Source: Telmatocola sphagniphila
GTDB lineage: Bacteria > Planctomycetota > Planctomycetia > Gemmatales > Gemmataceae
Direction of reading: 5' to 3'
DNA length: 32,000 bases
NCBI RefSeq assembly: GCF_018398935.1
Contig: NZ_CP074694.1
Location: 6,300,001 to 6,332,000 of the forward strand
How positions within the stretch are numbered: position 1 is the first letter of the stretch; the number at the start of each line of letters is the position of its first letter. A program made the position numbers and the translations under genes. This document shows positions 6,502-20,997 of the stretch, piece by piece. A model generated the notes under the pieces. That model searched no databases. It worked only from the letters and a program-made list of their open reading frames with translations, and was not told the DNA's origin.

Positions 6502-9500
6502 ATGCAGAGCACGTTCGGCGATTTGAGTCAAAAGGTTCCCCCCGCTGGGCTGTTAGGGTATTTGAATTTTTCAGATGGACAGCCTAACGGGAAGTTCCAG
6601 CAGCAATTGAACGAAGCTTATCGGTTCCTGGCCGATCATGGGGATGTTACGCCCTGGCACAGTCTGAAAGTCTGGCTCCAGGATCAGGCCGCCACTCTCG
6701 AAGCTACCGGTTCCTCGGCCTTCAAAGATCTCATTCAAGCCCGGGCGGTCATACGATTTGCGTTCGACCGGGTTCTGGTCCACTACAAAGAATTCCATTC
6801 CGATCTACTGGCCAATCAAAAGGACTGTATTCTATTCTCGCCCTTCTTTCTGGTCCGCGTCTGTGAAGCGGTTTTGAATCAGGGCGGTCCCTGGAACGAG
6901 GATAGCCGGATTATCGCGGGGGCCGTGCAGAAGCTCAACGATTTCGTCGGCCATCGTCCCGTGGCCATTCTGGAAACCCGGGCCCAAACCGACTATTACA
7001 AGCATGAAAAAGTCCGGCCAATCCCTCTCTATATCCGGGGCAGCGGCGTCGGAGCCGGGCCTTATTCGAAAATTGTCGAAAAGGCTCTGGAGATTTTGAA
7101 TTCAACCCCGGAAGAGATCCTTCGGGAAGCCTGTTTCAATATTAACCGGCTCGACGAACTGGCGATGGATCCCCGCCCGTACGACCATACTCATCCTTCG
7201 AACCGCCGGCCCAATTACCTTTTTGGCGAGTGGGATCCCCACTGCATCGACGGCTCGGGCTACTACCGCCGGTTTGTCGTGCGGCCCAATATTCTTTCCG
7301 CACTGGCTCAATGGGCGACCGATCCCGGCGAAGATTCGGAAGGACGTCTTTTCGAATCGGCGGCCGTGCTGGCCGGGACTCTGCTGATGGCCTCCGGCAT
7401 CTCCGGGGATGGTCCCTCCTGCCACGATTCGGATAGCAAACTGGCCATTCTGGTGCCTCAGAATGCTCGCTATCGTGACGCCTTTTATGCGCAACTTCTG
7501 GACAAACAAAACGGCACGTTTGCCAAACGGCTTCAGAAGGAAGCCAAGAAGCTTCGTCAGCCTTTCGGCGGTATCCGCCAGCATCTCAATCACACTCTGG
7601 CTCGGGAACGCGCCGGCCAGTTGCAGGATCGGGAACTGGCACTGCTCTTCGCCGATATGGGCTATCCGCGCATCAGCCGGGATTATGCCGCCCGCATTCC
7701 CACGGCCTCGATCCGCATTCTCAGCGAAATCCGCATCCGTCAGACCGGTCTCGAATTTCAGATTCGCAATGGCCGTACCGCCGGGGCGCACCTGCTGATT
7801 TCCGAAATCGAGGATTTCATTCATCGCGGCATCGACTGCGGCGCCTTGCCCGATCCCTGGAATATTCTCGGTTTCCAAGGCTTATTCCCGCTTTTCCAGG
7901 CCCGTGAAGATTCGGTCTTCGATACCCGCCACGAAGAATTGATCGATGTCGTTCAACGTCAGTTGGCGATCTATTCTTCCGCTTTGGCCGTCACGGCGGC
8001 CAACGGCGATACCAGCCTGCAGTCGATGCTCGGTCGGGGCATCAAGAAATTTGCCGCCTGGTGGGATCAGTTCGCGGCCTACGAAGTGAGTGATCTGCCC
8101 GCGGTTAAGGGAGGCGACCGCTCGGAGGCCGCTTTACACGTCGCTTCCGCACTGGCTCTCTGGGCCGAGGAACGCCGGCAAACCGACAAGTTCGATCTAC
8201 CCAAGAAAACCCAAAATGCCCTCCGATTCTGGCGAAATCAGCGCGAACGGTTCAAATCGGCACCCGCCTACGTTCAGGTCATCGATGCCTTGATTCAGCA
8301 GCAGGACTGGTGGGCGTCCATGGGTCTGATGATGGCCTGGCTGAACGAAGCCGAAACGATGCCGCTAACCGACGGCGAACCCGACTTCTTCGAACTGGGC
8401 CACCGCTGGATGGCGGGTGTCTTGCGCATTAACGACGATGCCGCCCGCCGCTCCTTGATCGAACGCTTCTTCGAGATGCTCGAAGCCAATGCCGGCGATT
8501 ACTGGAATGTGCCTGATCTCGTCGTCTCTTCGACCCCTGTCGATAAAGAGGAGACTTACTCCTCGGCCTACGACGATGTCAGCTATAAAGATTCCACATC
8601 GGATGAAGACGACGGCGGAATTATCGGCGGCGGTGAGGACGATGACATCAGCCTGGAAACCTATCAGGTTCTCTTCGAAAGAAGGCTCGGCTTCCTGAAG
8701 ATGATGGGGGAACTCATCTGCAAAGCCATCCCCTATCACCACTGCAAGGATTGGCTCGACACGGCCTGGTACTGGCGCAAGAAACTCGAAGAATTGCTGG
8801 ATATTCTGCATGAAATTATGATCTCGCCCCCCAGCGGCGGAGTCGAAGACGTCATCGAGTACGATCGCAAAAAGGCGGAGAAAGACCAGCTGATCGAAAT
8901 GGCCATCGATACGACGGTGGCCGTGGGCGCGGGGGTGCAATTGCTGGCCGCCGCCGATCTGCCGGAAGATCCGCTCTCAACCTGTCTGGTGAGCAATGAC
9001 CCCCAGAAAATTCGGGCAGCTCTGCCAGGTCTGTTGGAAAAGCTCTCTGGCGAACCGCTGCTGTTTATCCCGCTGGTCGAAGGCGGCCATCCGAAACAGG
9101 TGCTCCGGGCCAAGCTGAATCTGCACCTGCTGGAAACTCTGCTTGATCGCATCCCCCGTTTTGGCCTGGTACGCGAAACCTTCCACCTGGTGCAGGTGGC
9201 CCGCTCCATGGAGCAGAACAGCCCGCCGGAAGGCCGCAAAATTTCCGAATTCGACCGGCTGTTTCGCATGGCCTTACGGGCAGTTTCGGAAACGCTGCTC
9301 GACGTCGCCGCCGAATCGGAAAAAGAATCGAAACTCTCCAATGTTCGCAATGTCAGTCAGCTACTGCGCAAAGTGGCCGATTCCTTCTTGCAGCTTTGGA
9401 TTTCGCATTCCCAGACGCTACGACTCTCGGCCATCGAGGGAGTGGAAGACTGGGTCGCTTTACGGTCCTTCATCAAGACCTACGGTCGGGAACTCTTCAC

Positions 9501-10299
9501 TCCCGCCTTCATGAACCACGGCAACCTGCGCGGCATCCTTCAACGGGGCGTCGAAAACTGGCTCGAATCGCTGGCCGAGAATGCCACGGAAAATCCGCCG
9601 GAAAAACTGCTGACCGATCTGGAACAAGGGGTGATTTCACGGCGTCGGGCCGGCCAGCATCTGGAGGTGGTTTTGCAGGCCGTGACGGAACATTTCGACG
9701 AGTTCCGCGATTACAACACGACGACGACGCAGTCTGATTACGGGGAAAATCTCCATGTTCTCATGGACTTTTTGCGGCTGAAAGTTGCCTACGATCGTTA
9801 TGCCTGGCGGATGCGGCCCCTGGTCATCGCCCATGAAGTGCTATGCCGTCGCGGCCAGGCCGAGTACGCCGAGCAATGGCGGGCGAATATTGAAGATTTC
9901 ACGCGGAAATTGGCCGATAATCTTCTGGAGGATCTGGCCCGGCTGGAAGCAGAGCACGTCATCCGCCTACGGACCATCCGGGATCGCCTGGAAGAACGCT
10001 TCCTGCTGCCGTTGCGACTGGATGAACTCTCGGCCCTGATAGAGCCCTGTATCGAGGAGGCACGTAACGAGTCGGGCTCCAAAGAGAAGATCAACGAGTT
10101 TCTGGAAAAGCTGCATCCGCTGGCAGAACGGCCGACCGGTGTGGGCCTCGAAGCGCCGGATTGGTTGATTGAGTTGCAGAATGAGGTTCGACGCTCCCGC
10201 GAAAGTGCGGCCATCGAACCGCCGCGACCGGAACGCTTCGCTCTGAACTGGAGCGATCTGCAAAGGCAGTTGTCGGAATGGGATAAGCCGATCGATTAA
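6502..10299 (+). CDS. Large (1265 aa) uncharacterised, apparently all-helical cytoplasmic protein
   Basis: One uninterrupted ORF with an ATG start and backbone-like codon usage. I see no signal peptide, TM segment or catalytic motif. An acidic low-complexity linker (SSAYDDVSYKDSTSDEDDGGIIGGGEDDDISLETY) is encoded near 8563-8655. All track ORFs overlapping it are shorter. Confidence 0.75.
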   Translation: MQSTFGDLSQKVPPAGLLGYLNFSDGQPNGKFQQQLNEAYRFLADHGDVTPWHSLKVWLQDQAATLEATGSSAFKDLIQARAVIRFAFDRVLVHYKEFHSDLLANQKDCILFSPFFLVRVCEAVLNQGGPWNEDSRIIAGAVQKLNDFVGHRPVAILETRAQTDYYKHEKVRPIPLYIRGSGVGAGPYSKIVEKALEILNSTPEEILREACFNINRLDELAMDPRPYDHTHPSNRRPNYLFGEWDPHCIDGSGYYRRFVVRPNILSALAQWATDPGEDSEGRLFESAAVLAGTLLMASGISGDGPSCHDSDSKLAILVPQNARYRDAFYAQLLDKQNGTFAKRLQKEAKKLRQPFGGIRQHLNHTLARERAGQLQDRELALLFADMGYPRISRDYAARIPTASIRILSEIRIRQTGLEFQIRNGRTAGAHLLISEIEDFIHRGIDCGALPDPWNILGFQGLFPLFQAREDSVFDTRHEELIDVVQRQLAIYSSALAVTAANGDTSLQSMLGRGIKKFAAWWDQFAAYEVSDLPAVKGGDRSEAALHVASALALWAEERRQTDKFDLPKKTQNALRFWRNQRERFKSAPAYVQVIDALIQQQDWWASMGLMMAWLNEAETMPLTDGEPDFFELGHRWMAGVLRINDDAARRSLIERFFEMLEANAGDYWNVPDLVVSSTPVDKEETYSSAYDDVSYKDSTSDEDDGGIIGGGEDDDISLETYQVLFERRLGFLKMMGELICKAIPYHHCKDWLDTAWYWRKKLEELLDILHEIMISPPSGGVEDVIEYDRKKAEKDQLIEMAIDTTVAVGAGVQLLAAADLPEDPLSTCLVSNDPQKIRAALPGLLEKLSGEPLLFIPLVEGGHPKQVLRAKLNLHLLETLLDRIPRFGLVRETFHLVQVARSMEQNSPPEGRKISEFDRLFRMALRAVSETLLDVAAESEKESKLSNVRNVSQLLRKVADSFLQLWISHSQTLRLSAIEGVEDWVALRSFIKTYGRELFTPAFMNHGNLRGILQRGVENWLESLAENATENPPEKLLTDLEQGVISRRRAGQHLEVVLQAVTEHFDEFRDYNTTTTQSDYGENLHVLMDFLRLKVAYDRYAWRMRPLVIAHEVLCRRGQAEYAEQWRANIEDFTRKLADNLLEDLARLEAEHVIRLRTIRDRLEERFLLPLRLDELSALIEPCIEEARNESGSKEKINEFLEKLHPLAERPTGVGLEAPDWLIELQNEVRRSRESAAIEPPRPERFALNWSDLQRQLSEWDKPID

Positions 10300-10604
10300 T
10301 CGAATTTCCTTTTATTGGGAAACGCCAATATGCTTGAAAATTACTCCCCCTACCAACAGAAGGTTATCAAGAATTACTACGCGAACATCGATAAGGTGAG
10401 TCTGCAACGGCTCTCCGAATTGGTGACGGAACTCTATCTGGCGGAAGGTAAGAAGAAGGACAAGCTCTGGCAAACCGCGGCCACGACCATGAAGAAGCTG
10501 GAGGTCCCGCAAAGCCGGATCGATCACATCACGTCAAAGGCCGACGTGACTCTGTTGGCCGGGCTGGTGAAGGAGCTGATGGGGAAGTGAGGAGGGGGAT
10601 TTTA
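10245..10604 (+). repeat. Direct repeat, left copy: last 18 codons of the 1265-aa gene, the 30-nt spacer and the 86-aa gene
   Basis: Aligns without gaps through the stop codon (10590 / 13815) to 13470..13834; homology decays (with indels) in the last ~15-20 nt. The 30-nt spacer tcgaatttccttttattgggaaacgccaat is identical in both copies. Confidence 0.9.
10330..10590 (+). CDS. Small (86 aa) conserved hypothetical protein, copy 1, partner of the 1265-aa gene
   Basis: The ATG at 10330 lies 30 nt after the stop of the 1265-aa gene; the track ORF starts at an upstream TTG (10315). Translation is MLENYSPYQQKVIKNYYANIDKVSLQRLSELVTELYLAEGKKKDKLWQTAATTMKKLEVPQSRIDHITSKADVTLLAGLVKELMGK. Coding status is supported by the synonymous-only divergence from copy 2. 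Confidence 0.75.
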   Translation: MLENYSPYQQKVIKNYYANIDKVSLQRLSELVTELYLAEGKKKDKLWQTAATTMKKLEVPQSRIDHITSKADVTLLAGLVKELMGK

Positions 10605-11052: not shown

Positions 11053-11121
11053 AGAGGCTCTAACAAAACCCCTTTTTGTAGCAGTATTCCATGAACAAAC
11101 TGAGGTTTTATTAGAGGTTCT
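11053..11121 (+). repeat. 69-bp palindromic (MITE-like / REP-like) element, copy A
   Basis: Sequence agaggctctaacaaaacccc-tttttgtagcagtattccatgaacaaactg-aggttttattagaggttct. The 20-nt arms pair at 16/20 Watson-Crick positions plus one G-T pair. The asymmetric centre sets the orientation, which matches copy C. Confidence 0.85.
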
Positions 11122-11554: not shown

Positions 11555-11578
11555 TAATCGTTGGCTGGAGTATTAGAT

Positions 11579-11989
11579 ATGAACTCGATTGCGAACTTGA
11601 TGGTGGTGCTTGGGGGGATAGGTCTCTTTTTTGCATTCGGGCCAAATAGTTTACTAAATGGTAAAACCGATGCGACAAGCCAGAGTGACTCTAGAGAGCT
11701 GGTGGTCTCAAAGATAGAATGCAAGAAGATTTCTGACCATTATGAAGCGGAAGTTTGTTTCGAGAACAAAACGCAGAATTCAGTCTCCATCATCGAAATT
11801 ATCCCTACCTGCAGCTGCGCGAGCGGGAGAATTGAAGATTCCATGGTTGATCCTGTAAGGGAAGGTAAGATACGACTCGAATTTAAGCCCGGAGCGAGCG
11901 ATACTCAACAGATCATGATTCTCTACGAGGGTGTATTCGGAGGTCGATACCCTATTGTCGTCAATCTTAAATTGGGTTCCAAATCTTAG
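11579..11989 (+). CDS. Membrane-anchored DUF1573-like (single Ig-like beta-sandwich) protein
   Basis: The ATG at 11579 gives MNSIANLMVVLGGIGLFFAFG (an N-terminal TM anchor), followed by a pattern that fits DUF1573: CFENKTQNSVSIIEIIPTCSCASGRIEDSMVDPVREGKIRLEFKP. The family SCGC motif appears here as TCSC. Codon usage is strongly AT-rich. Confidence 0.55.
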   Translation: MNSIANLMVVLGGIGLFFAFGPNSLLNGKTDATSQSDSRELVVSKIECKKISDHYEAEVCFENKTQNSVSIIEIIPTCSCASGRIEDSMVDPVREGKIRLEFKPGASDTQQIMILYEGVFGGRYPIVVNLKLGSKS

Positions 11990-12108
11990 CTCGTTGAACG
12001 GGAACGATCATAAAGCAATCTTTACTATATATAACTAATCCCATATTGAATTTACTTCGAATAGAATATTCGACTTGTGGGTGTAAATTTACAACTGAAA
12101 GTGTTTAT

Positions 12109-13203
12109 ATGAAAATATTTATTTGCTTAGCAGTTGCGTTATTGCTCGATTACAATTGCTGCCGGGCGGAAAGTAATAATGCCGAGGAGATTGCCAAACT
12201 TCAAAAAGCGGGACTCGAAGCTTTGGCCTACTTTAAATCCATCACTTATAGTGGCAGTGACTCCAGCTCGGAAATTCTGTCAATGCTCAAAAAAGACGCC
12301 GAACTAAAAAATATAGCATTTACCGATTGCAGTACCATGGACTACGATAGGTATGAAGTTTATAATAACGACAGTCAAAAATACAATCATAAATATAGTT
12401 TAAAACAGATTGTGGGGAAAGATTGTTTGTTTGAAAATAGCAGTCTGATATCTAAGCCGCAAGAAGTGTGGCAAACCAGCTACTATTTTGGAGGCAAATC
12501 TTTGCAATTTACGGGAAAGCGAATTGTGCATCGCATAACAAATACAGGGGATTGCGGCGCGATAAGATATTTGGATTTGCGATTTATTAGTTCCCTTAGT
12601 CAAACTTTAACTCGCGAATTTAAAGGCGATTCCACATATGCGGAATATCTTGAAATGATTGAAGATAGAATAAAGAATTCATTAAAATGTAAAATATATA
12701 AAACAGAGAAAGATGTATTTGCAAAAATAGAATCAAATAAAAAATTGGCTGACGTTTCTTTGTACCTTCGATTTGAAAAAACTAAATCCGAATTTCTTCT
12801 AGCCGAAGTTGCAATTGCGACACCTAGTACTCTTTTTTACAAAAAATCATCATATGATGTTGCATTTAATGAGTTTCTGCCTCGTGAGGTGTCCTGTTCG
12901 CAATATGATAACTCAATACTAATTGAACACAATTCGATCACAGTAAAAAATCTTGTTGTAGGTAACTGCAAATGCGAGCCGAAAGATATATCTTTCGATG
13001 GGTTAGGTGAAATTGCGTACGGTGATTTGGTCTATCCGGTATACAGTAAAAATTTCATCCAATCAATATTTTATGGCGAAAAAATTGTAAAAATTGCGAC
13101 AGAGCGAAATCCCAAATTATACCTCATTGTTACCTCATGTGCCTTTCTAGCACTGGGATTATTAATACATTTGAGAAAAAGAATACTTAAAATGAGTAAA
13201 TAG
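12109..13203 (+). CDS. Hypothetical Cys-rich extracytoplasmic protein with a signal peptide and a C-terminal TM anchor
   Basis: The ATG at 12109 gives MKIFICLAVALLLDYNCCRAES (signal-like). The C-terminus LYLIVTSCAFLALGLLIHLRKRILKMSK is a TM helix plus a basic tail. Cysteines are scattered through the protein. The track ORF begins at an upstream TTG (12046). The gene is very AT-rich and its stop lies 8 nt before element B. Confidence 0.6.
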   Translation: MKIFICLAVALLLDYNCCRAESNNAEEIAKLQKAGLEALAYFKSITYSGSDSSSEILSMLKKDAELKNIAFTDCSTMDYDRYEVYNNDSQKYNHKYSLKQIVGKDCLFENSSLISKPQEVWQTSYYFGGKSLQFTGKRIVHRITNTGDCGAIRYLDLRFISSLSQTLTREFKGDSTYAEYLEMIEDRIKNSLKCKIYKTEKDVFAKIESNKKLADVSLYLRFEKTKSEFLLAEVAIATPSTLFYKKSSYDVAFNEFLPREVSCSQYDNSILIEHNSITVKNLVVGNCKCEPKDISFDGLGEIAYGDLVYPVYSKNFIQSIFYGEKIVKIATERNPKLYLIVTSCAFLALGLLIHLRKRILKMSK

Positions 13204-13211
13204 AAATATTA

Positions 13212-13280
13212 AGAGGCTCTGACAAAACCCCATTTCGTCCATTGAATACTGCTACAAAGAGAGGTTTTGTTAGGGCTTCT
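13212..13280 (-). repeat. 69-bp palindromic (MITE-like / REP-like) element, copy B, inverted relative to A and C
   Basis: The reverse complement of B aligns ungapped to A at 56/69 positions by hand count. It shares an exact 13-mer (gtattcaatggac) with C. In direct orientation the centres do not align. Confidence 0.85.
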
Positions 13281-13310: not shown

Positions 13311-13469
13311 GTAACCGCCCACACCTCGTCTTGAGATTATCTGGAATTGCTCTTGCGCTGGGGAATTAATTATCTTATCTCGGGGATGGAGTCTATCAGC
13401 GAAGAGTGGCTTATTCGCCAAACGCCGGAAGTTCGGGCTGTGCTGCGGATTCTTTTGAACCGCATCGCC
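13311..13469 (+). mobile_element. Truncated 5' end of an IS66-family-like insertion sequence (terminal GTAA inverted repeat plus the first ~31 codons of the transposase)
   Basis: G+C rises abruptly at GTAACCGCCCACACC (13311); IS66-family ends typically begin GTAA. An ATG at 13386 encodes MESISEEWLIRQTPEVRAVLRILLNRIAELE.., resembling the N-terminal leucine-zipper region (DUF6444-type, ..PEVQ....L..RIAELEA.L) of IS66-like transposases as I remember them. The frame then runs out of frame into host-like sequence and stops at 13511. Confidence 0.4.
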
Positions 13470-13470
13470 G

Positions 13471-13524
13471 AACTGGAGCGATCTGCAAAAGCAGCTGTCG
13501 GAGTACGATAAGCCGATCGAATAA
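13471..13524 (+). pseudogene. Orphan 3'-terminal remnant (17 codons plus stop) homologous to the C-terminus of the 1265-aa gene
   Basis: Reads NWSDLQKQLSEYDKPIE-stop versus NWSDLQRQLSEWDKPID-stop at 10246-10299. An in-frame TGA lies just upstream (13456-13458), so there is no long ORF. Confidence 0.6.
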
Positions 13525-13554
13525 TCGAATTTCCTTTTATTGGGAAACGCCAAT

Positions 13555-13815
13555 ATGCTCGAAAATTACTCCCCCTACCAGCAGAAGGTTATCAAGAATT
13601 ACTACGCGAACATCGATAAGGTGAGTCTGCAACGGCTCTCCGAATTGGTGACGGAGCTCTATCTGGCGGAAGGTAAGAAGAAAGACAAGCTCTGGCAAAC
13701 GGCGGCCACGACGATGAAGAAGCTGGAGGTCCCGCAGAGCCGGATTGATCACATCACCTCGAAAGCGGATGTGACGCTATTGGCCGGGGTGGTGAAGGAG
13801 CTGATGGGGAAGTAG
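13555..13815 (+). CDS. Small (86 aa) conserved hypothetical protein, copy 2
   Basis: Identical in length to copy 1 with one amino-acid difference (L to V near the C-terminus). There are 15 synonymous third-position differences, and the stop is TAG instead of TGA. The upstream 30 nt are identical to copy 1. Confidence 0.7.
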   Translation: MLENYSPYQQKVIKNYYANIDKVSLQRLSELVTELYLAEGKKKDKLWQTAATTMKKLEVPQSRIDHITSKADVTLLAGVVKELMGK

Positions 13816-13865
13816 GGGGAGGAGGTGTTTTTTGCAGGCATATATATTCTTCGAATAAAAATCAA

Positions 13866-15638
13866 TTACACTATTGTTTTCTCTTTGGCATGTAAAGATG
13901 CTAAAAGAAGGCCAATATGAAATACGCAATCTGTGAGGTATGGATTTATTTCGTTCGGCAAAATATCGCCATGAAATAGTCTGTTTCGAACATTAAGACC
14001 TAATTGATCAGTAAGAATATATCGCATATAAAATATTTCATCTTCGCTTTTGAAGATATTTAACAAAATAGGATCTCTCAAAAGGTCATCAAGTATTCGG
14101 AGATGAAATGCTCCACTTCTCGATTTTTTTATAATATACCCGTCAGAAAATTTTATCAAAAGACGAATTGCAGATTCGAGCTGAGGAAGAAACAGATGTA
14201 ATGCTGAAATCCAATCGTTCTCTAGGTATGATTTGATTGCCCTTTCAGTTAGTAACTTTTTATTTTCGCTGAATAAATGATTTGAGTGTATATACTCTGA
14301 AAAGTTTTCTTTATTTATAAGATTTCGAGATATACAAGCTTCAATAATTTGTCTATAGAGAAAATATTTGACAGGTTGGGTTATGCTCCAATATGACTTT
14401 AAAGCGCCGCCCTCGTCATTTTCGGCACTTCCGATGCTCCCTTGCTCGCGGCCATCTCTCGCTATTAATTTTTTTGTGACAAGATTCTGTAAGGGAAATT
14501 GCGCGACTAATCCTTTGATGTCTTTTCGATCCTGCTCAAAATTGGGTAAGCCTTGTATAGCGAGGTTTGTAAACACATCGCCAGGTGCTTCGATGAAGTT
14601 TTTTATGATACATTCAATTTCGCCGTTAGGAATGTGGATCGAGCTAGTCAGAGGGTGTAGTTCCATAGACATTTTTTTTGCACACTCAGAATACATTTTT
14701 ATTGCTTCGGCTGCCAAATCGTTTAAATTATACTGTTGTAAGGTCTTATGAATCTCCTGCATCCAAGCTGTAGTTATGATGCCTTTTATATCATGATTTT
14801 TTATTTTTTCAATATAAGCATCGGCGTATACCTTCAAAACGCGTGTGACATCTGACGAAGTTGCTGCTTTATTGTAAAATTCTGCCAGCCGAGTTGCGGC
14901 GAATTTTACACCTTCGGGCTCACTAGAATATTCTTGAAAAAGATTCCTGTATTTCGCAAGATTATTTTCGAGATTATTTATTATTTCAATAATTGAATCA
15001 ATTGAAATTTTACTTTTACAAGAACTTTCCAAAAGTAGATCATATGGATTCTTCCAAACATAGTAGGTCTTCTCAGTGTCTTTTGATTTGTAAAATTCGA
15101 TAATTGTAGAGCATAATTCTTGTAGAAGGTCATCTTCTTTGGTCAGGATTGCGAGTTGAATGGATCGTTCGAATCGAGCATAAGTTGTGTGCAAATATAC
15201 GTCCAGATCCGATTTGGCGATATCTATCGCTGCTCGAATGGTTGTCTTTGTGACTCTATTATCTTTCATTTTAAGTCTGGGCATCATGTCCCATGCTATA
15301 TCCGAATATCTGTATTTGAATATCGGATGAGTAACATCTTCACTCCGTTTAATCCAATACGAAATCCATTTTTCATTTAAATCAATGATTGATGGGAACT
15401 GACTGTTTTCATACTCCGAAAAGGGTGTATAATAATGCTCTGATCCATATCTTGACAATTGCTTTCCAGTAATGGGCCGAACCCTGAAAGCGAAAATTTC
15501 TGCTTCGAGTTCAAAATCGGATTGAGTAGGATTTAGGTTGGGAATTAATTTGATTAATTCTTCTGCCAACTCGTCTTCGGTAAAATTTTTCTTAAATGTT
15601 TCAAACTTATGAATTATTTCATCAATATGAGCTTTCAT
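13866..15638 (-). CDS. 590-aa protein with a C-terminal HEPN-like R-x4-H domain (resembles the DUF4209 family)
   Basis: Uninterrupted AT-rich ORF with an ATG start. The C-terminal region LFLPQLESAIRLL...YILTDQLGLNVRNRLFHGDILP carries R-N-R-L-F-H, encoded at 13971-13988 on the minus strand. This fits the HEPN Rx4-6H signature and my memory of the DUF4209 motif G.NLRN..AHG. The N-terminal ~450 aa are helical with no recognised motif. Confidence 0.7.
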   Translation of the reverse strand: MKAHIDEIIHKFETFKKNFTEDELAEELIKLIPNLNPTQSDFELEAEIFAFRVRPITGKQLSRYGSEHYYTPFSEYENSQFPSIIDLNEKWISYWIKRSEDVTHPIFKYRYSDIAWDMMPRLKMKDNRVTKTTIRAAIDIAKSDLDVYLHTTYARFERSIQLAILTKEDDLLQELCSTIIEFYKSKDTEKTYYVWKNPYDLLLESSCKSKISIDSIIEIINNLENNLAKYRNLFQEYSSEPEGVKFAATRLAEFYNKAATSSDVTRVLKVYADAYIEKIKNHDIKGIITTAWMQEIHKTLQQYNLNDLAAEAIKMYSECAKKMSMELHPLTSSIHIPNGEIECIIKNFIEAPGDVFTNLAIQGLPNFEQDRKDIKGLVAQFPLQNLVTKKLIARDGREQGSIGSAENDEGGALKSYWSITQPVKYFLYRQIIEACISRNLINKENFSEYIHSNHLFSENKKLLTERAIKSYLENDWISALHLFLPQLESAIRLLIKFSDGYIIKKSRSGAFHLRILDDLLRDPILLNIFKSEDEIFYMRYILTDQLGLNVRNRLFHGDILPNEINPYLTDCVFHIGLLLASLHAKEKTIV

Positions 15639-15668: not shown

Positions 15669-15735
15669 AGAGGTATTAACAAAACCCCATTTTTGCGGTA
15701 TTCAATGGACAAATTGAGGTATTGTCAGAGTTTCT
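15669..15735 (+). repeat. 67-bp palindromic (MITE-like / REP-like) element, copy C (most degenerate)
   Basis: Sequence agaggtattaacaaaaccccatttttgcggtattcaatggacaaattgaggtattgtcagagtttct, in the same orientation as A. It lies 30 nt upstream of the ATG of the 590-aa gene and 36 nt beyond the stop of the esterase gene. It marks the composition shift back to the backbone. Confidence 0.8.
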
Positions 15736-15771
15736 TAGGGGCATTATTGTTCTTTCTGAGAAAAATGTCCC

Positions 15772-18068: not shown

Positions 18069-19985
18069 TTACTTGAAAGTCCGCAGCGCGGCGGCCACAT
18101 TATTGTCGAAAGTTATTAGCTCATTCTTGAAGGCGTTCATAAGATCGAATCGTTTCAGCGTACTTTCGTCCTTGTTCGGCGTGTCGGTCAGCTTCTGAAT
18201 TTCATCGACCAGCAACTGTTCGAGTTCGGGGCCGATCTGGTTCAGCTTGGCCAGTCCGTATTTGTCGCCCGCATCCTTGCAGACATCGAAAGCTCGGCGA
18301 GCTTCCGGCAGCTTCGATTTCATATCATCGAACGACTGCACTTTAGCCCACGATTCATAGATGAATTTACGGGCCGCACTGTGCGCATCGCTCTTGGGCG
18401 TCCAGTTCTTCTTCAGTTCATCCCGCTTCTGCGTGAAAGCATCCTTCGCGGCGGTTTCGGTTCCCGCCGCCACAATTGCTTCGTCGTAGAGTTTCAACGC
18501 CTCTTCGATATTCACCTGCTGAATGGCCGAGTCGATTCGCAGCACAAATCCGTTCAGCTTCTTTTTCAGTTCCACGACTTCAGGAAGGTTCTGCTGCCGA
18601 CTGACTTCATCGAGTTGAGCAATATAGGAATCCAGTTGCCGGCGGGCATCGCGCAGGCTTTGTAGCTTTTCATCCAGAACATCTGTGAAGCCGGGAAGGG
18701 AGACTTTGGCGGCGATGGTCTGTTCTTTGAATTTCTGCAGATCGACGGTCAGCTCGCTGATATCGCCGTCGATGCGACTGAGCGTCTTTCGAGCGGAGTT
18801 ATCGGCCTGATCCACTTTCCCCTGTTTCACCAGTTGAGTAATATCTTTGAAGCACTGGGCCTGAATGCGGCGGGAGTCATTGACGCGATCCAGCCAGAAG
18901 CCGCGGCGGGCCACCAGTTGATCGCGGCTTTCCGCACCCGCTTCGATGTTTACCGTTCGCACTACCACCGCATCTCCGGTAATGGCCAGCGGAATGCGGG
19001 CAATTGCTCGCTCGCCCAGATCGATGCGGACGAAAGCGATATTCTTCATCGGATCGCGCGACGTGAACACATCTCGAAATAGCACACCCAGATCGCGTTC
19101 CTGATAACTCTCGGCGAAGCCGGAATCCTTGATGCGTACTTGCAGTCCGACCTGTCGAAGCGGGGCTCCCTTGGGATCGATGAGTTTCAATTTCAAGGGA
19201 GCGGTGACGGTTGCGAGTCGGATGCAGCGATAGCCGACAATGCTTCCGCGGGCGGGTGGCAATCGATCGGCGTACTGGCGGACCAACCGGCAGGTCGATT
19301 GGCCGTCTTTCATTTCATCGAGCACCTGCAACAGAACGTCATCGCAATCGGAAGTGGTGCCGCGCAGGCCGGTACCGTCTTTGCGAATTTGTACCACTTT
19401 CAACACATCTCCCGGCCGGACCCAATCGGCCAGCGCGAGGCCACGCCGTCCGGCTTTCCAGCTGACCGGGACATTATCGCCGGCAGGAATGAAAGAACCG
19501 GTGAAACCGAAGTCGCGTATCACCCAATCGGTAATCTGTTTCAAAATGGCGGAGCGATCCGAAAGTGTGGCTTCGCGAATCAGCGAATTGAAGCCGGTGC
19601 TGCCATCGTGTTGCCGGGCGCGAATGCGGATACCCTGTTCGCTGGCCTCGATCCAGAAAACGTGAAGTTTTTCGTTGCTCAGCGGGGCGGGGGCGTCGAG
19701 GGCGGTGGGGCCGGTTTTCAGGTAATTTCGCTCCTGTTCGGTCCAGTCCTTGTTCGGCTTCCGCATCAGGTCGATGATTTCGAACTCGGCCAAGTTGCCT
19801 AGCAGGCCCTGGAGCTTGTCCTCGATATCGGACTTCAAATTGAGCCGGTAGGTTTCGTTGAAGAGCGGATGCGCGCGGAAAAGCAAAACGATTTTAGTGG
19901 AGTAGGTTTGATCGCTATCCGTGGGCAGTTGAGCAGCGGCCGGGAACGCAAAAAGAAGTAGTGAACAGATCGCCACAAAACGCAT
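18069..19985 (-). CDS. Secreted hypothetical protein with a long C-terminal coiled-coil region
   Basis: The internal ATG (19985..19983) gives the signal peptide MRFVAICSLLLFAFPAAAQ. The track ORF's extra 58 N-terminal residues would overlap the divergent GT2 gene. The C-terminal half is heptad-like and rich in K, E, Q and L. No family recognised. Confidence 0.65.
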   Translation of the reverse strand: MRFVAICSLLLFAFPAAAQLPTDSDQTYSTKIVLLFRAHPLFNETYRLNLKSDIEDKLQGLLGNLAEFEIIDLMRKPNKDWTEQERNYLKTGPTALDAPAPLSNEKLHVFWIEASEQGIRIRARQHDGSTGFNSLIREATLSDRSAILKQITDWVIRDFGFTGSFIPAGDNVPVSWKAGRRGLALADWVRPGDVLKVVQIRKDGTGLRGTTSDCDDVLLQVLDEMKDGQSTCRLVRQYADRLPPARGSIVGYRCIRLATVTAPLKLKLIDPKGAPLRQVGLQVRIKDSGFAESYQERDLGVLFRDVFTSRDPMKNIAFVRIDLGERAIARIPLAITGDAVVVRTVNIEAGAESRDQLVARRGFWLDRVNDSRRIQAQCFKDITQLVKQGKVDQADNSARKTLSRIDGDISELTVDLQKFKEQTIAAKVSLPGFTDVLDEKLQSLRDARRQLDSYIAQLDEVSRQQNLPEVVELKKKLNGFVLRIDSAIQQVNIEEALKLYDEAIVAAGTETAAKDAFTQKRDELKKNWTPKSDAHSAARKFIYESWAKVQSFDDMKSKLPEARRAFDVCKDAGDKYGLAKLNQIGPELEQLLVDEIQKLTDTPNKDESTLKRFDLMNAFKNELITFDNNVAAALRTFK

Positions 19986-20142
19986 AGATGATCCTAAAAC
20001 CGGTAAATCGATCCTTCTTAGATAGTTTAATCGAAGATTATGGGGGAAACCACGTCGGAAATTGCCGAGATTTCGGGAATATTCGCGAGATTGCGGCATC
20101 TGAATTCTAAAATGGGAGAAATACTCTTCTTCGGGTTCGGAT

Positions 20143-20997
20143 ATGCCGTTGCTTCTCACTTCGCCGCCATTAAATCCAACGCACGAGATCTTTCACGTCG
20201 AACGGATTTTAGACCCAGATGAATCCGTACCCGCCCGACAGCATAAAATCATTGCGGTATTACCGGCCTACAACGCCGAGCGAACCTTGGCGGCGACGCT
20301 GGCCGATTTCCCTCCCGGCTCGGTCGATCAGATCCTTCTGGTCGACGATTGCAGCAAGGACCGCACGGTTGAGATCGCCCTTGAGATGGGATTGACGGTG
20401 ATTCAGCATCCCAAAAATAGGGGGTATGGGGGAAATCAGAAGACTTGCTACCAGTATGCTCTCGATCAGGGGGCCGATATCGTGGTGATGATCCATCCCG
20501 ATTATCAGTACGATGCCCGAGTGATACCGCATGCGATTGGAATGATCGAATTGGGAATCTGCGACATCGTGTTGGGCAGCCGGATTCGTTCCCGAAAAGA
20601 AGCTTTGCAGTGCGGAATGCCCTGGTGGAAGTATTTCGCCAACCGAGCACTGACGGCCTTCGAAAATATCTGTCTGGGCCAGAATTTAGGCGACTTTCAC
20701 AGTGGCTTCCGGGTCTATCGCCGGAACGTGCTGGAGAAGATCCCTTTCCAAAACAATTCGGACGACTTCGTCTTCGACACGCAGTTTCTGGCTCAGGCGG
20801 TACACTTCGGCTTCCGGCTGGGCGACATTCCGGTTCCGGTCCGCTACTTCAATGAAGCCAGCAGCATCAACTTTCGCCGCAGTTCGATCTACGGTATTCG
20901 AACAGTGCAGACGATGCTGGGCTTTCTCATGAATCGCCTGCGGCTCTGGCGATCCTCGCTCTATTCCACCACCCGACACCAGACCGCTTTAAGATAA
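20143..20997 (+). CDS. Family 2 glycosyltransferase (Dpm1-like)
   Basis: 284 aa. GT-A hallmarks are [25 protein letters not shown] and MIHPDYQYD (DxD-type). The 3' end overlaps the convergent rlmI-like gene by 37 nt. Confidence 0.8.

Follow-up and report, generated by a model that had tools for sequence, protein, structure and literature searches.

A divergent PDC-S39/DUF4209 family HEPN protein from Telmatocola sphagniphila as a candidate single-chain defence RNase

Within a 32,000-nucleotide stretch of the Telmatocola sphagniphila genome (contig NZ_CP074694.1, positions 6,300,001 to 6,332,000; hereafter the window), one gene on the minus strand encodes a protein of 590 amino acids (aa) that almost certainly belongs to the PDC-S39/DUF4209 family and to the HEPN proteins. 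We propose that this protein is a soluble, single-chain sensor-effector, namely a HEPN defence RNase with an intact R551-x4-H556 motif that would act by abortive infection. The proposal draws on analogy with the HEPN defence RNases Cas13, Csm6, RnlA, the HEPN-MNT toxins, HEC-08 and DS-11, and we put its probability at roughly 55%. DUF4209 as a HEPN domain and PDC-S39 as a defence candidate are already known; the window gene adds a member that is new and diverges unusually far.

The gene is a complete open reading frame (ORF), for which we obtained the same coordinates and the same translation as an initial annotation made from the sequence alone (Table 1). Alignments to homologues begin at residues 3 to 5, and therefore the annotated start codon is correct. 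No transmembrane segment was found in the protein (maximal 19-residue Kyte-Doolittle mean of 1.3), and an identical protein is encoded in two short-read assemblies (Logan SRR14506984 and SRR14506983). The C terminus matches the Pfam profile DUF4209 (PF13910) above its gathering cutoff (E = 3.6e-14, 53 bits versus 22.3; aa 487 to 575, profile positions 1 to 85 of 89), as expected from the HEPN/DUF4209 reading of the initial annotation. PDC-S39 was the only PADLOC system with matching models, which align over the full length of the protein (aa 43 to 563; PDLC05011, E = 1.4e-27, model positions 50 to 561 of 595; PDLC05012, E = 2.5e-26); these matches were judged by E-value and bit score and not by PADLOC's own calling thresholds. 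An NCBIfam scan yielded nothing significant (best E = 0.031, 14 bits versus a cutoff of 191), and a word-indexed protein search, run with the single sequence and then with a 66-sequence profile, returned only the query itself both times.

Homologues were collected from 1.84 billion representatives, which were searched exhaustively with HMMER; 2158 clusters matched at E ≤ 1e-3, of which 423 reached E ≤ 1e-30. Nearly all of the best 150 representatives align end to end with the window protein and 142 of them are 560 to 640 aa long, while the closest is only 31% identical to it. DUF4209 is present in all 66 members aligned and DUF7380 in 45 of them. From the number of clusters, the end-to-end alignments and these domain counts, we conclude that DUF7380-DUF4209 proteins make up an old, large and diverse family whose two modules come in a fixed arrangement, and that the window protein is an outlier within it. 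It scores 95 bits against PDC-S39 and its nearest relatives 88 to 144, whereas the proteobacterial and prophage core clade reaches 344 to 408 bits; the window protein and these relatives belong to a distant sister group of the core clade. Thirty IMG/VR contigs carry full-length relatives that fall into the same high range, and these therefore represent the clade from which the PDC-S39 model was built.

Residue conservation was counted in an alignment of the 150 family representatives. The motif RNRLFH maps to residues 551 to 556, at the position and on the strand first reported for it, and both R551 and H556, which had been proposed as a catalytic signature, are invariant in the family. By chance, about 0.5 R-x4-H patterns would be expected in 590 aa (a rough estimate), and the motif alone is not significant. 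It becomes significant because it lies inside an above-cutoff DUF4209 match and because its two residues are found in all representatives. The family consensus at this site is TDxRGWNLRNxVCHG, where the window protein has TDQLGLNVRNRLFHG; G547 is kept in 147 of the 150. Further conserved positions lie in the first long HEPN helix and in a beta-hairpin and loop outside the Pfam domain (Table 1). In the latter, G396 and D408 are each retained in 145 representatives, and tblastn matches to prophage relatives start at residue 395. A second, degenerate HEPN domain in the N terminus, suggested by the consensus R98-A-x4-H104-P, was considered and rejected, as position 104 is a histidine in only 94 of 150 representatives (asparagine in 47). 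Likewise, alignment of the N-terminal and middle regions to the HEPN region with hhalign gave probabilities of 0.1%, 0.2% and 1.0%.

The full-length AlphaFold2 model, calculated from a 66-sequence alignment, is almost all helical and confident (predicted local distance difference test, pLDDT, 91.3; predicted template modelling score, pTM, 0.82). The C-terminal 136 residues modelled alone reached a pLDDT of 95.3 and a pTM of 0.87. When this isolated model was compared to the PDB with Foldseek (template modelling, TM, values normalised to the query), all matches at TM ≥ 0.45 were HEPN proteins. The highest probability was that of 2q00 (0.97; TM 0.51), accompanied by the HEPN proteins 2hsb (0.57), 1ufb (0.52) and 1wol (0.50), the Csm6 structures 6tug (0.49) and 5yjc (0.45), and the HEPN-MNT toxin 8xeh (about 0.46 to 0.50). 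The C-terminal helical bundle suspected from the sequence is thereby recovered in the prediction, with weak E-values, and we regard this as fold-level agreement with HEPN rather than as statistical proof. Full-length searches of the PDB and BFVD gave weak TPR, Sel1 and alpha-solenoid matches only, none at E ≤ 0.001, and did not retrieve HEPN. The N-terminal approximately 450 residues are predicted to form a helical-repeat (TPR-like) scaffold. This region had been described as free of recognisable motifs, which did not hold up: a conserved DUF7380-type module, with a subthreshold score in the window protein, precedes the TPR-like repeat. With a profile match above cutoff, invariant R and H, and a predicted fold of the HEPN type, the overall interpretation of the initial annotation is supported.

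DUF4209 was assigned by Anantharaman et al. (2013; PMC3710099) to HEPN as the "C6orf70 family", which is traceable to the last eukaryotic common ancestor. In that study, the bacterial versions were predicted to be catalytically active and were seen in operons related to restriction-modification (R-M), and eukaryotic C6orf70 was predicted to be membrane-anchored and to degrade RNA at the endoplasmic reticulum (ER) membrane. Payne et al. (2024; 10.1101/2024.01.29.577857) added 145 "untested phage defence candidates" to PADLOC, the series to which PDC-S39 belongs; these candidates were nominated because their genes lie within BREX, DISARM and type I R-M systems. The architecture is thus uncharacterised, as the initial annotation had stated, but already catalogued under both names. 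Given the HEPN assignment of 2013 and the candidate listing of 2024, the locus therefore adds an example and not a concept. Since PDC-S39 itself is listed as untested, membership gives no demonstrated function. The name PDC-S39 occurs only as a list item in papers surveying the genomes of P. aeruginosa PAO1 and of an E. coli O157:H7 strain, and entries for DUF4209 or PDC-S39 are absent from the supplements of 10.1101/2024.01.29.577857 and 10.1101/2025.01.08.631726.

Comparison with known systems places the window protein closest to PDC-S39, with which it shares the full-length match, the DUF7380 plus DUF4209 architecture of about 590 aa and the single gene without a partner, at a much lower score than the core clade. 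With C6orf70/ERMARD it shares the DUF4209 domain and the G-x-N-x-R-N-x3-H-G motif containing the HEPN R and H. The eukaryotic prototype is, however, predicted to be ER-anchored by a transmembrane segment, whereas the window protein lacks such a segment and has the DUF7380/TPR-like N terminus. HEC-08 (DUF3644 HEPN plus Zn fingers), DS-11 (CBS plus HEPN) and DS-38/PD-T7-4 (HEPN plus Zn finger) are experimentally validated defence systems that likewise combine a HEPN Rx4-6H RNase domain with a non-catalytic, putative sensor or regulatory domain in one chain. They belong to other HEPN families with other accessory domains, and no PADLOC model of theirs matched the window protein, in which the accessory part is a helical repeat of about 450 aa located N-terminal to HEPN. 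In these single-protein HEPN systems, defence depends on the HEPN catalytic residues and is lost in mutants of catalytic residues or the histidine (10.1101/2024.01.29.577857, 10.1101/2025.01.08.631726). By analogy, the window protein would be expected to work like HEC-08, DS-11 and DS-38/PD-T7-4. The HEPN-MNT type II/VII modules (PDB 8xeh, 8yuf) have the minimal HEPN fold in common with it, but their toxins measure only about 120 to 130 aa, and a neighbouring MNT nucleotidyltransferase acts as their antitoxin. A nucleotidyltransferase was found neither among the window neighbours nor in the 25 most frequent neighbour families listed for the homologues. Stand-alone Abi genes with HEPN domains are also single genes, and DUF4145 genes lie beside three homologues of the window gene; the Abi families differ in size and N-terminal architecture and gave no Pfam or PADLOC match to the window protein.

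Based on these analogies, the following mechanism can be envisaged. In uninfected cells, the protein would be held inactive by its N-terminal DUF7380/TPR-like region. An infection cue would be sensed by this large helical region, allowing two HEPN domains to pair and thereby to form a composite active site. Independently of metal ions, this site would cut RNA of the cell and/or the phage, and the cleavage would halt translation so that the infection is aborted. RNA cut by HEPN RNases carries 2',3'-cyclic phosphate and 5'-OH ends.

The genomic context of relatives was investigated by scanning one genome per species, which yielded 71 loci. These span Bacteroidota, Gammaproteobacteria, Planctomycetota, Cyanobacteria, Chloroflexota, Nitrospirota, Lentisphaerae and others, and one metagenome-assembled genome (MAG) of Promethearchaeota; the distribution of the family is patchy and cross-phylum. 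The Promethearchaeota member (WJKO01000219.1) is full-length, 36% identical to the query used, and located on a 2.7-kb contig. If it is not a binning artefact, this Asgard-binned member would be of interest, as a transfer of DUF4209 from bacteria to eukaryotes has been proposed. For 59 loci, ORFs were called anew and the 496 flanking proteins were clustered by all-versus-all BLAST. No neighbour family occurred in more than three of the 59 loci, and therefore the gene stands alone, as the initial annotation had proposed. Strong matches among the immediate neighbours of relatives were PARIS AriA, SAVED-TIR, a CBASS peptidase effector, ThsB, DarT and ZorB. Further defence-type neighbours were an SNF2 helicase (DrmD/DrmA/BrxH/HmaA/DpdE models), a type I S subunit and PD-Lambda-4_A, and the candidates PDC-S06, PDC-S13, PDC-S33 and PDC-S71 were found as well. 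Relatives also adjoin integrases, AbiEii-like ATPases and ParE, and some of them lie beside housekeeping genes (e.g., EF-G and a Mur ligase). PADLOC matched six of the ten large neighbours of relatives.

Few plasmids encode a family member (4 of 72,556), and deposited phage genomes are almost devoid of the family. Of 5426 complete E. coli genomes, 148 (about 3%) carry the core PDC-S39 clade, always on the chromosome, where the copies are annotated merely as "DUF4209 domain-containing protein". In E. coli D2 (NZ_CP010137.1, 2488782 to 2490569), the gene is part of a lambdoid prophage, in whose accessory region it is oriented against its neighbours, with hokD, rem, ydfU and Q on one side and DUF977, YdaT and Cro/CI on the other. 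Such positions are common for prophage-borne defence genes. In one E. coli strain (NZ_CP025842.1), an IS1203 insertion splits the gene into separately annotated "DUF7380" and "DUF4209" proteins.

In the window, the HEPN gene differs strongly in composition from its surroundings. Its GC content is 0.353 and its GC content at third codon positions (GC3) 0.318, compared to a GC content of 0.522 for the whole window, a GC of 0.53 and GC3 of 0.707 for the adjacent esterase gene, and a GC3 of 0.783 for a neighbouring 91-aa ORF. It lies in a GC trough of about 35 to 43% that extends from about 10.6 to 15.7 kb, the rest of the window being at 52 to 60%. The gene is horizontally acquired and, as had been noted before, foreign by composition. 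The surrounding island is a mosaic of two low-GC modules, each with a GC3 of about 0.32, separated by a host-like duplicated segment (Table 1). While the mosaic island described in the initial annotation was confirmed, its mobile-element debris did not prove to be transposase debris: it consists of three copies of a miniature inverted-repeat transposable element (MITE) and the duplicated, partly decayed host segment. No Pfam match to an integrase or transposase was obtained for any window ORF tested.

Table 1. Coordinates of the HEPN gene, its sequence features and the surrounding elements in the window
Feature	Position	Strand	Details
HEPN-protein gene	13866..15638	(-)	Complete ORF, ATG start, 590 aa, DUF7380-like + TPR-like + DUF4209
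C-terminal HEPN domain	13893..14273	(-)	aa ~456-582; most conserved region of the family
R551-N-R-L-F-H556, HEPN Rx4H catalytic motif	13971..13988	(-)	R551 and H556 150/150; N552 149/150; N549 148/150
P485-Q-L-E488-S-A-I-R492 motif	14163..14186	(-)	First long HEPN helix (476-497 in model); E488 150/150; P485 and R492 149/150
Beta-hairpin and loop, aa 389-411	14406..14474	(-)	Near-invariant G396, G403, D408, G411; strands 389-392 and 398-402 in model; outside Pfam domain
DUF7380-like N-terminal module, aa 92-170	15129..15365	(-)	PF24098, 19.9 bits, under cutoff of 27; conserved W95, R98, P105, R110, Y111
Sigma-70-like promoter match	15743..15771	(-)	GGGACA-17-AATAAT, 9/12, weak; sole match upstream of the start; consensus may not be that of the host
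MITE copy 1	11054..11120		67 bp; TTA/TTA target-site duplication
MITE copy 2	13213..13279		67 bp; TAA/TAA target-site duplication; core inverted relative to copies 1 and 3
MITE copy 3	15670..15734		Degenerate, flanks ATA/TTA; between promoter-like site and HEPN start codon, at foreign/host junction
First low-GC module	11561..13203	(+)	DUF1573 protein (11561-11989) and 385-aa protein (12046-13203); GC3 0.316
Host-like direct duplication, ~370 bp	10231-10599 and 13457-13823	(+)	94% identical
1265-aa ORF	6502-10299	(+)	No significant Pfam/PADLOC match; sub-threshold DUF6428 only
696-aa ORF	18069-20159	(-)	No significant Pfam/PADLOC match

The three MITE copies (65 to 67 bp) are located at three of the four foreign/host junctions of the island. 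Their terminal inverted repeats of 19 bp (GAGGCTCTRACAAAACCCC / GGGGTTTTGTYAGAGCCTC) enclose a variable core of about 28 nt. An exact 20-mer of the element was found in 45 metagenome contigs from soil, peat and sediment, and 15 of 17 complete copies have direct TAA/TAA or TTA/TTA flanks, corresponding to a 3-bp TWA target-site duplication. The 19-bp terminal repeats together with this duplication therefore identify a genuine MITE. No parent transposase was found for it, and in the metagenome contigs it shows no link to GC boundaries. Integron attC sites were rejected as an explanation for the ~70-nt palindromes in view of the alternating core orientation, the lack of an integrase in the window and the TWA target-site duplications. 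A role as insertion sequence end or cargo carrier was rejected as well, with long-range arm pairs in three metagenome contigs enclosing ordinary genes (Ser/Thr kinases) and no transposase. No Rfam match to a known RNA family was obtained in the island, the MITE included.

MITE copies 1 and 2, with cores inverted relative to each other, bracket the low-GC module at 11561 to 13203. The 385-aa protein of this module has, by eye from the translation, an apparent N-terminal signal and C-terminal hydrophobic segments. The duplicated segment carries the 91-aa ORF in two copies (10315 to 10590 and 13540 to 13815), the second of which is convergent with the HEPN gene. The copies differ by 16 synonymous versus one non-synonymous codons, and therefore the ORF is a real gene under purifying selection in both copies, although its product is unannotated and has no Pfam or PADLOC match. 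The 91-aa ORF was rejected as a conserved partner of the HEPN gene, being a duplicated host-like gene (GC3 0.78) that is not family-wide among the clustered flanking proteins. Just upstream of its second copy lies a gene remnant (13390 to 13511; small ORF 13347 to 13511), a frameshifted C terminus of a paralogue of the 1265-aa gene, with the remnant ending in …NWSDLQKQLSEYDKPIE and the 1265-aa gene in …NWSDLQRQLSEWDKPID. This suggests that arrival of the low-GC module at 11.1 to 13.3 kb displaced most of a second copy of the 1265-aa gene. The two Logan contigs that encode the HEPN protein stop about 240 bp (SRR14506984) and about 25 bp (SRR14506983) past the end of the gene, which would fit a collapse of the assembly at the MITE or the duplicated segment. 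In such short-read assemblies, the HEPN gene would appear as an orphan at a contig end.

Several observations weigh against a role in defence by abortive infection. Dimerisation, trigger and target are all inferred by analogy. The Foldseek E-values for the HEPN domain range from 0.16 to 5, with none at ≤ 0.001, and sequence and profile searches of the PDB gave no solved structure among sequence relatives (best sequence match E = 0.66). Our literature search gave no paper characterising a DUF4209 protein or PDC-S39, and the PDC series was excluded as unvalidated by DefensePredictor (10.1101/2025.01.08.631726). The association of relatives with defence genes is suggestive, coming from 59 loci without a background control, and is not a measured enrichment. 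For the window copy, none of the ten genes and ORFs scanned around it matched PADLOC, so that the typical defence-island context stated in the initial annotation applies to the family and not to this locus. Finally, the window protein departs from the family at near-invariant sites, with L546 (R in 143 of 150), C571 (R in 138) and Y183 (E in 126).

These substitutions could also mean that the window copy is decaying or inactive, i.e., an intact frame left from an old transfer whose RNase function is no longer selected, a reading that is compatible with the others. Two of the three replaced charged residues lie in the HEPN domain, one of them five residues before the catalytic R, and none of the members seen diverges further (31% identity at most). 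Moreover, a MITE separates the sole promoter-like site from the start codon, and the surrounding island shows decay, as exemplified by the frameshifted remnant. On the other hand, the 1773-nt ORF stays open in DNA of 35% GC, where stop codons arise easily, and the protein aligns to the family over its full length without truncation. It has kept the strictly invariant E488, R551 and H556 together with R492, N549, N552, G396 and D408, its AlphaFold2 model is confident throughout, and the same protein occurs in two independent assemblies. We consider decay improbable.

Slightly better placed, though still unlikely, is the reading that the HEPN RNase is active but serves in conflict or stress outside anti-phage defence: it could, for example, stabilise the island as a self-limiting toxin, act against plasmids or in kin discrimination, or arrest growth under stress. 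HEPN domains are known to serve also as toxins of toxin-antitoxin systems (PMC3710099). The catalytic motif is intact, the window copy lies in a horizontally acquired island without defence neighbours, and ParE and HokD are encoded beside relatives. However, the 59 loci share no antitoxin-like partner of the MNT or any other type, the family's rarity on plasmids argues against such a role, and relatives repeatedly occur beside dedicated anti-phage systems and in the accessory regions of prophages. By far the least probable of the alternatives is an enzyme for housekeeping or regulatory RNA processing outside any genetic conflict, as a bacterial counterpart of C6orf70/ERMARD. The shared DUF4209 domain with the predicted ER-membrane RNA degrader of eukaryotes (PMC3710099) and the occurrence of EF-G and Mur ligase genes next to homologues would fit this role. 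It is opposed by the patchy cross-phylum distribution, by the prophage-borne occurrence in only a small fraction of E. coli genomes, by the foreign composition, by the lack of a conserved operon partner, and by the lack of a membrane anchor such as that predicted for C6orf70.

We favour the defence RNase. A more specific version of it, which we put forward only tentatively and consider doubtful in its entirety, would see the DUF7380/TPR-like region as a direct, ATPase-free receptor for a phage protein that licenses HEPN dimerisation upon binding, "Avs-like" in one chain of about 590 aa and without an NTPase switch. The environmental sister clade and the enterobacterial prophage clade would then recognise different triggers, and the family might offer a first experimental handle on the RNase function of C6orf70/ERMARD.

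If the proposed function is true, PDC-S39/DUF4209 would represent a widespread single-gene immune RNase, with more than 2000 clusters at 50% identity in many bacterial phyla. The homologue in E. coli prophages, WP_073544235.1, is a more tractable experimental entry than the window gene. The window protein itself would mark the divergent edge of the family and help to define its indispensable residues: at this edge, E488, R492, N549, R551, N552, H556, G396 and D408 survive, whereas R546, R571 and E183 are lost. Human C6orf70/ERMARD, the biochemical activity of which is so far only predicted, is moreover a relative of this bacterial family.

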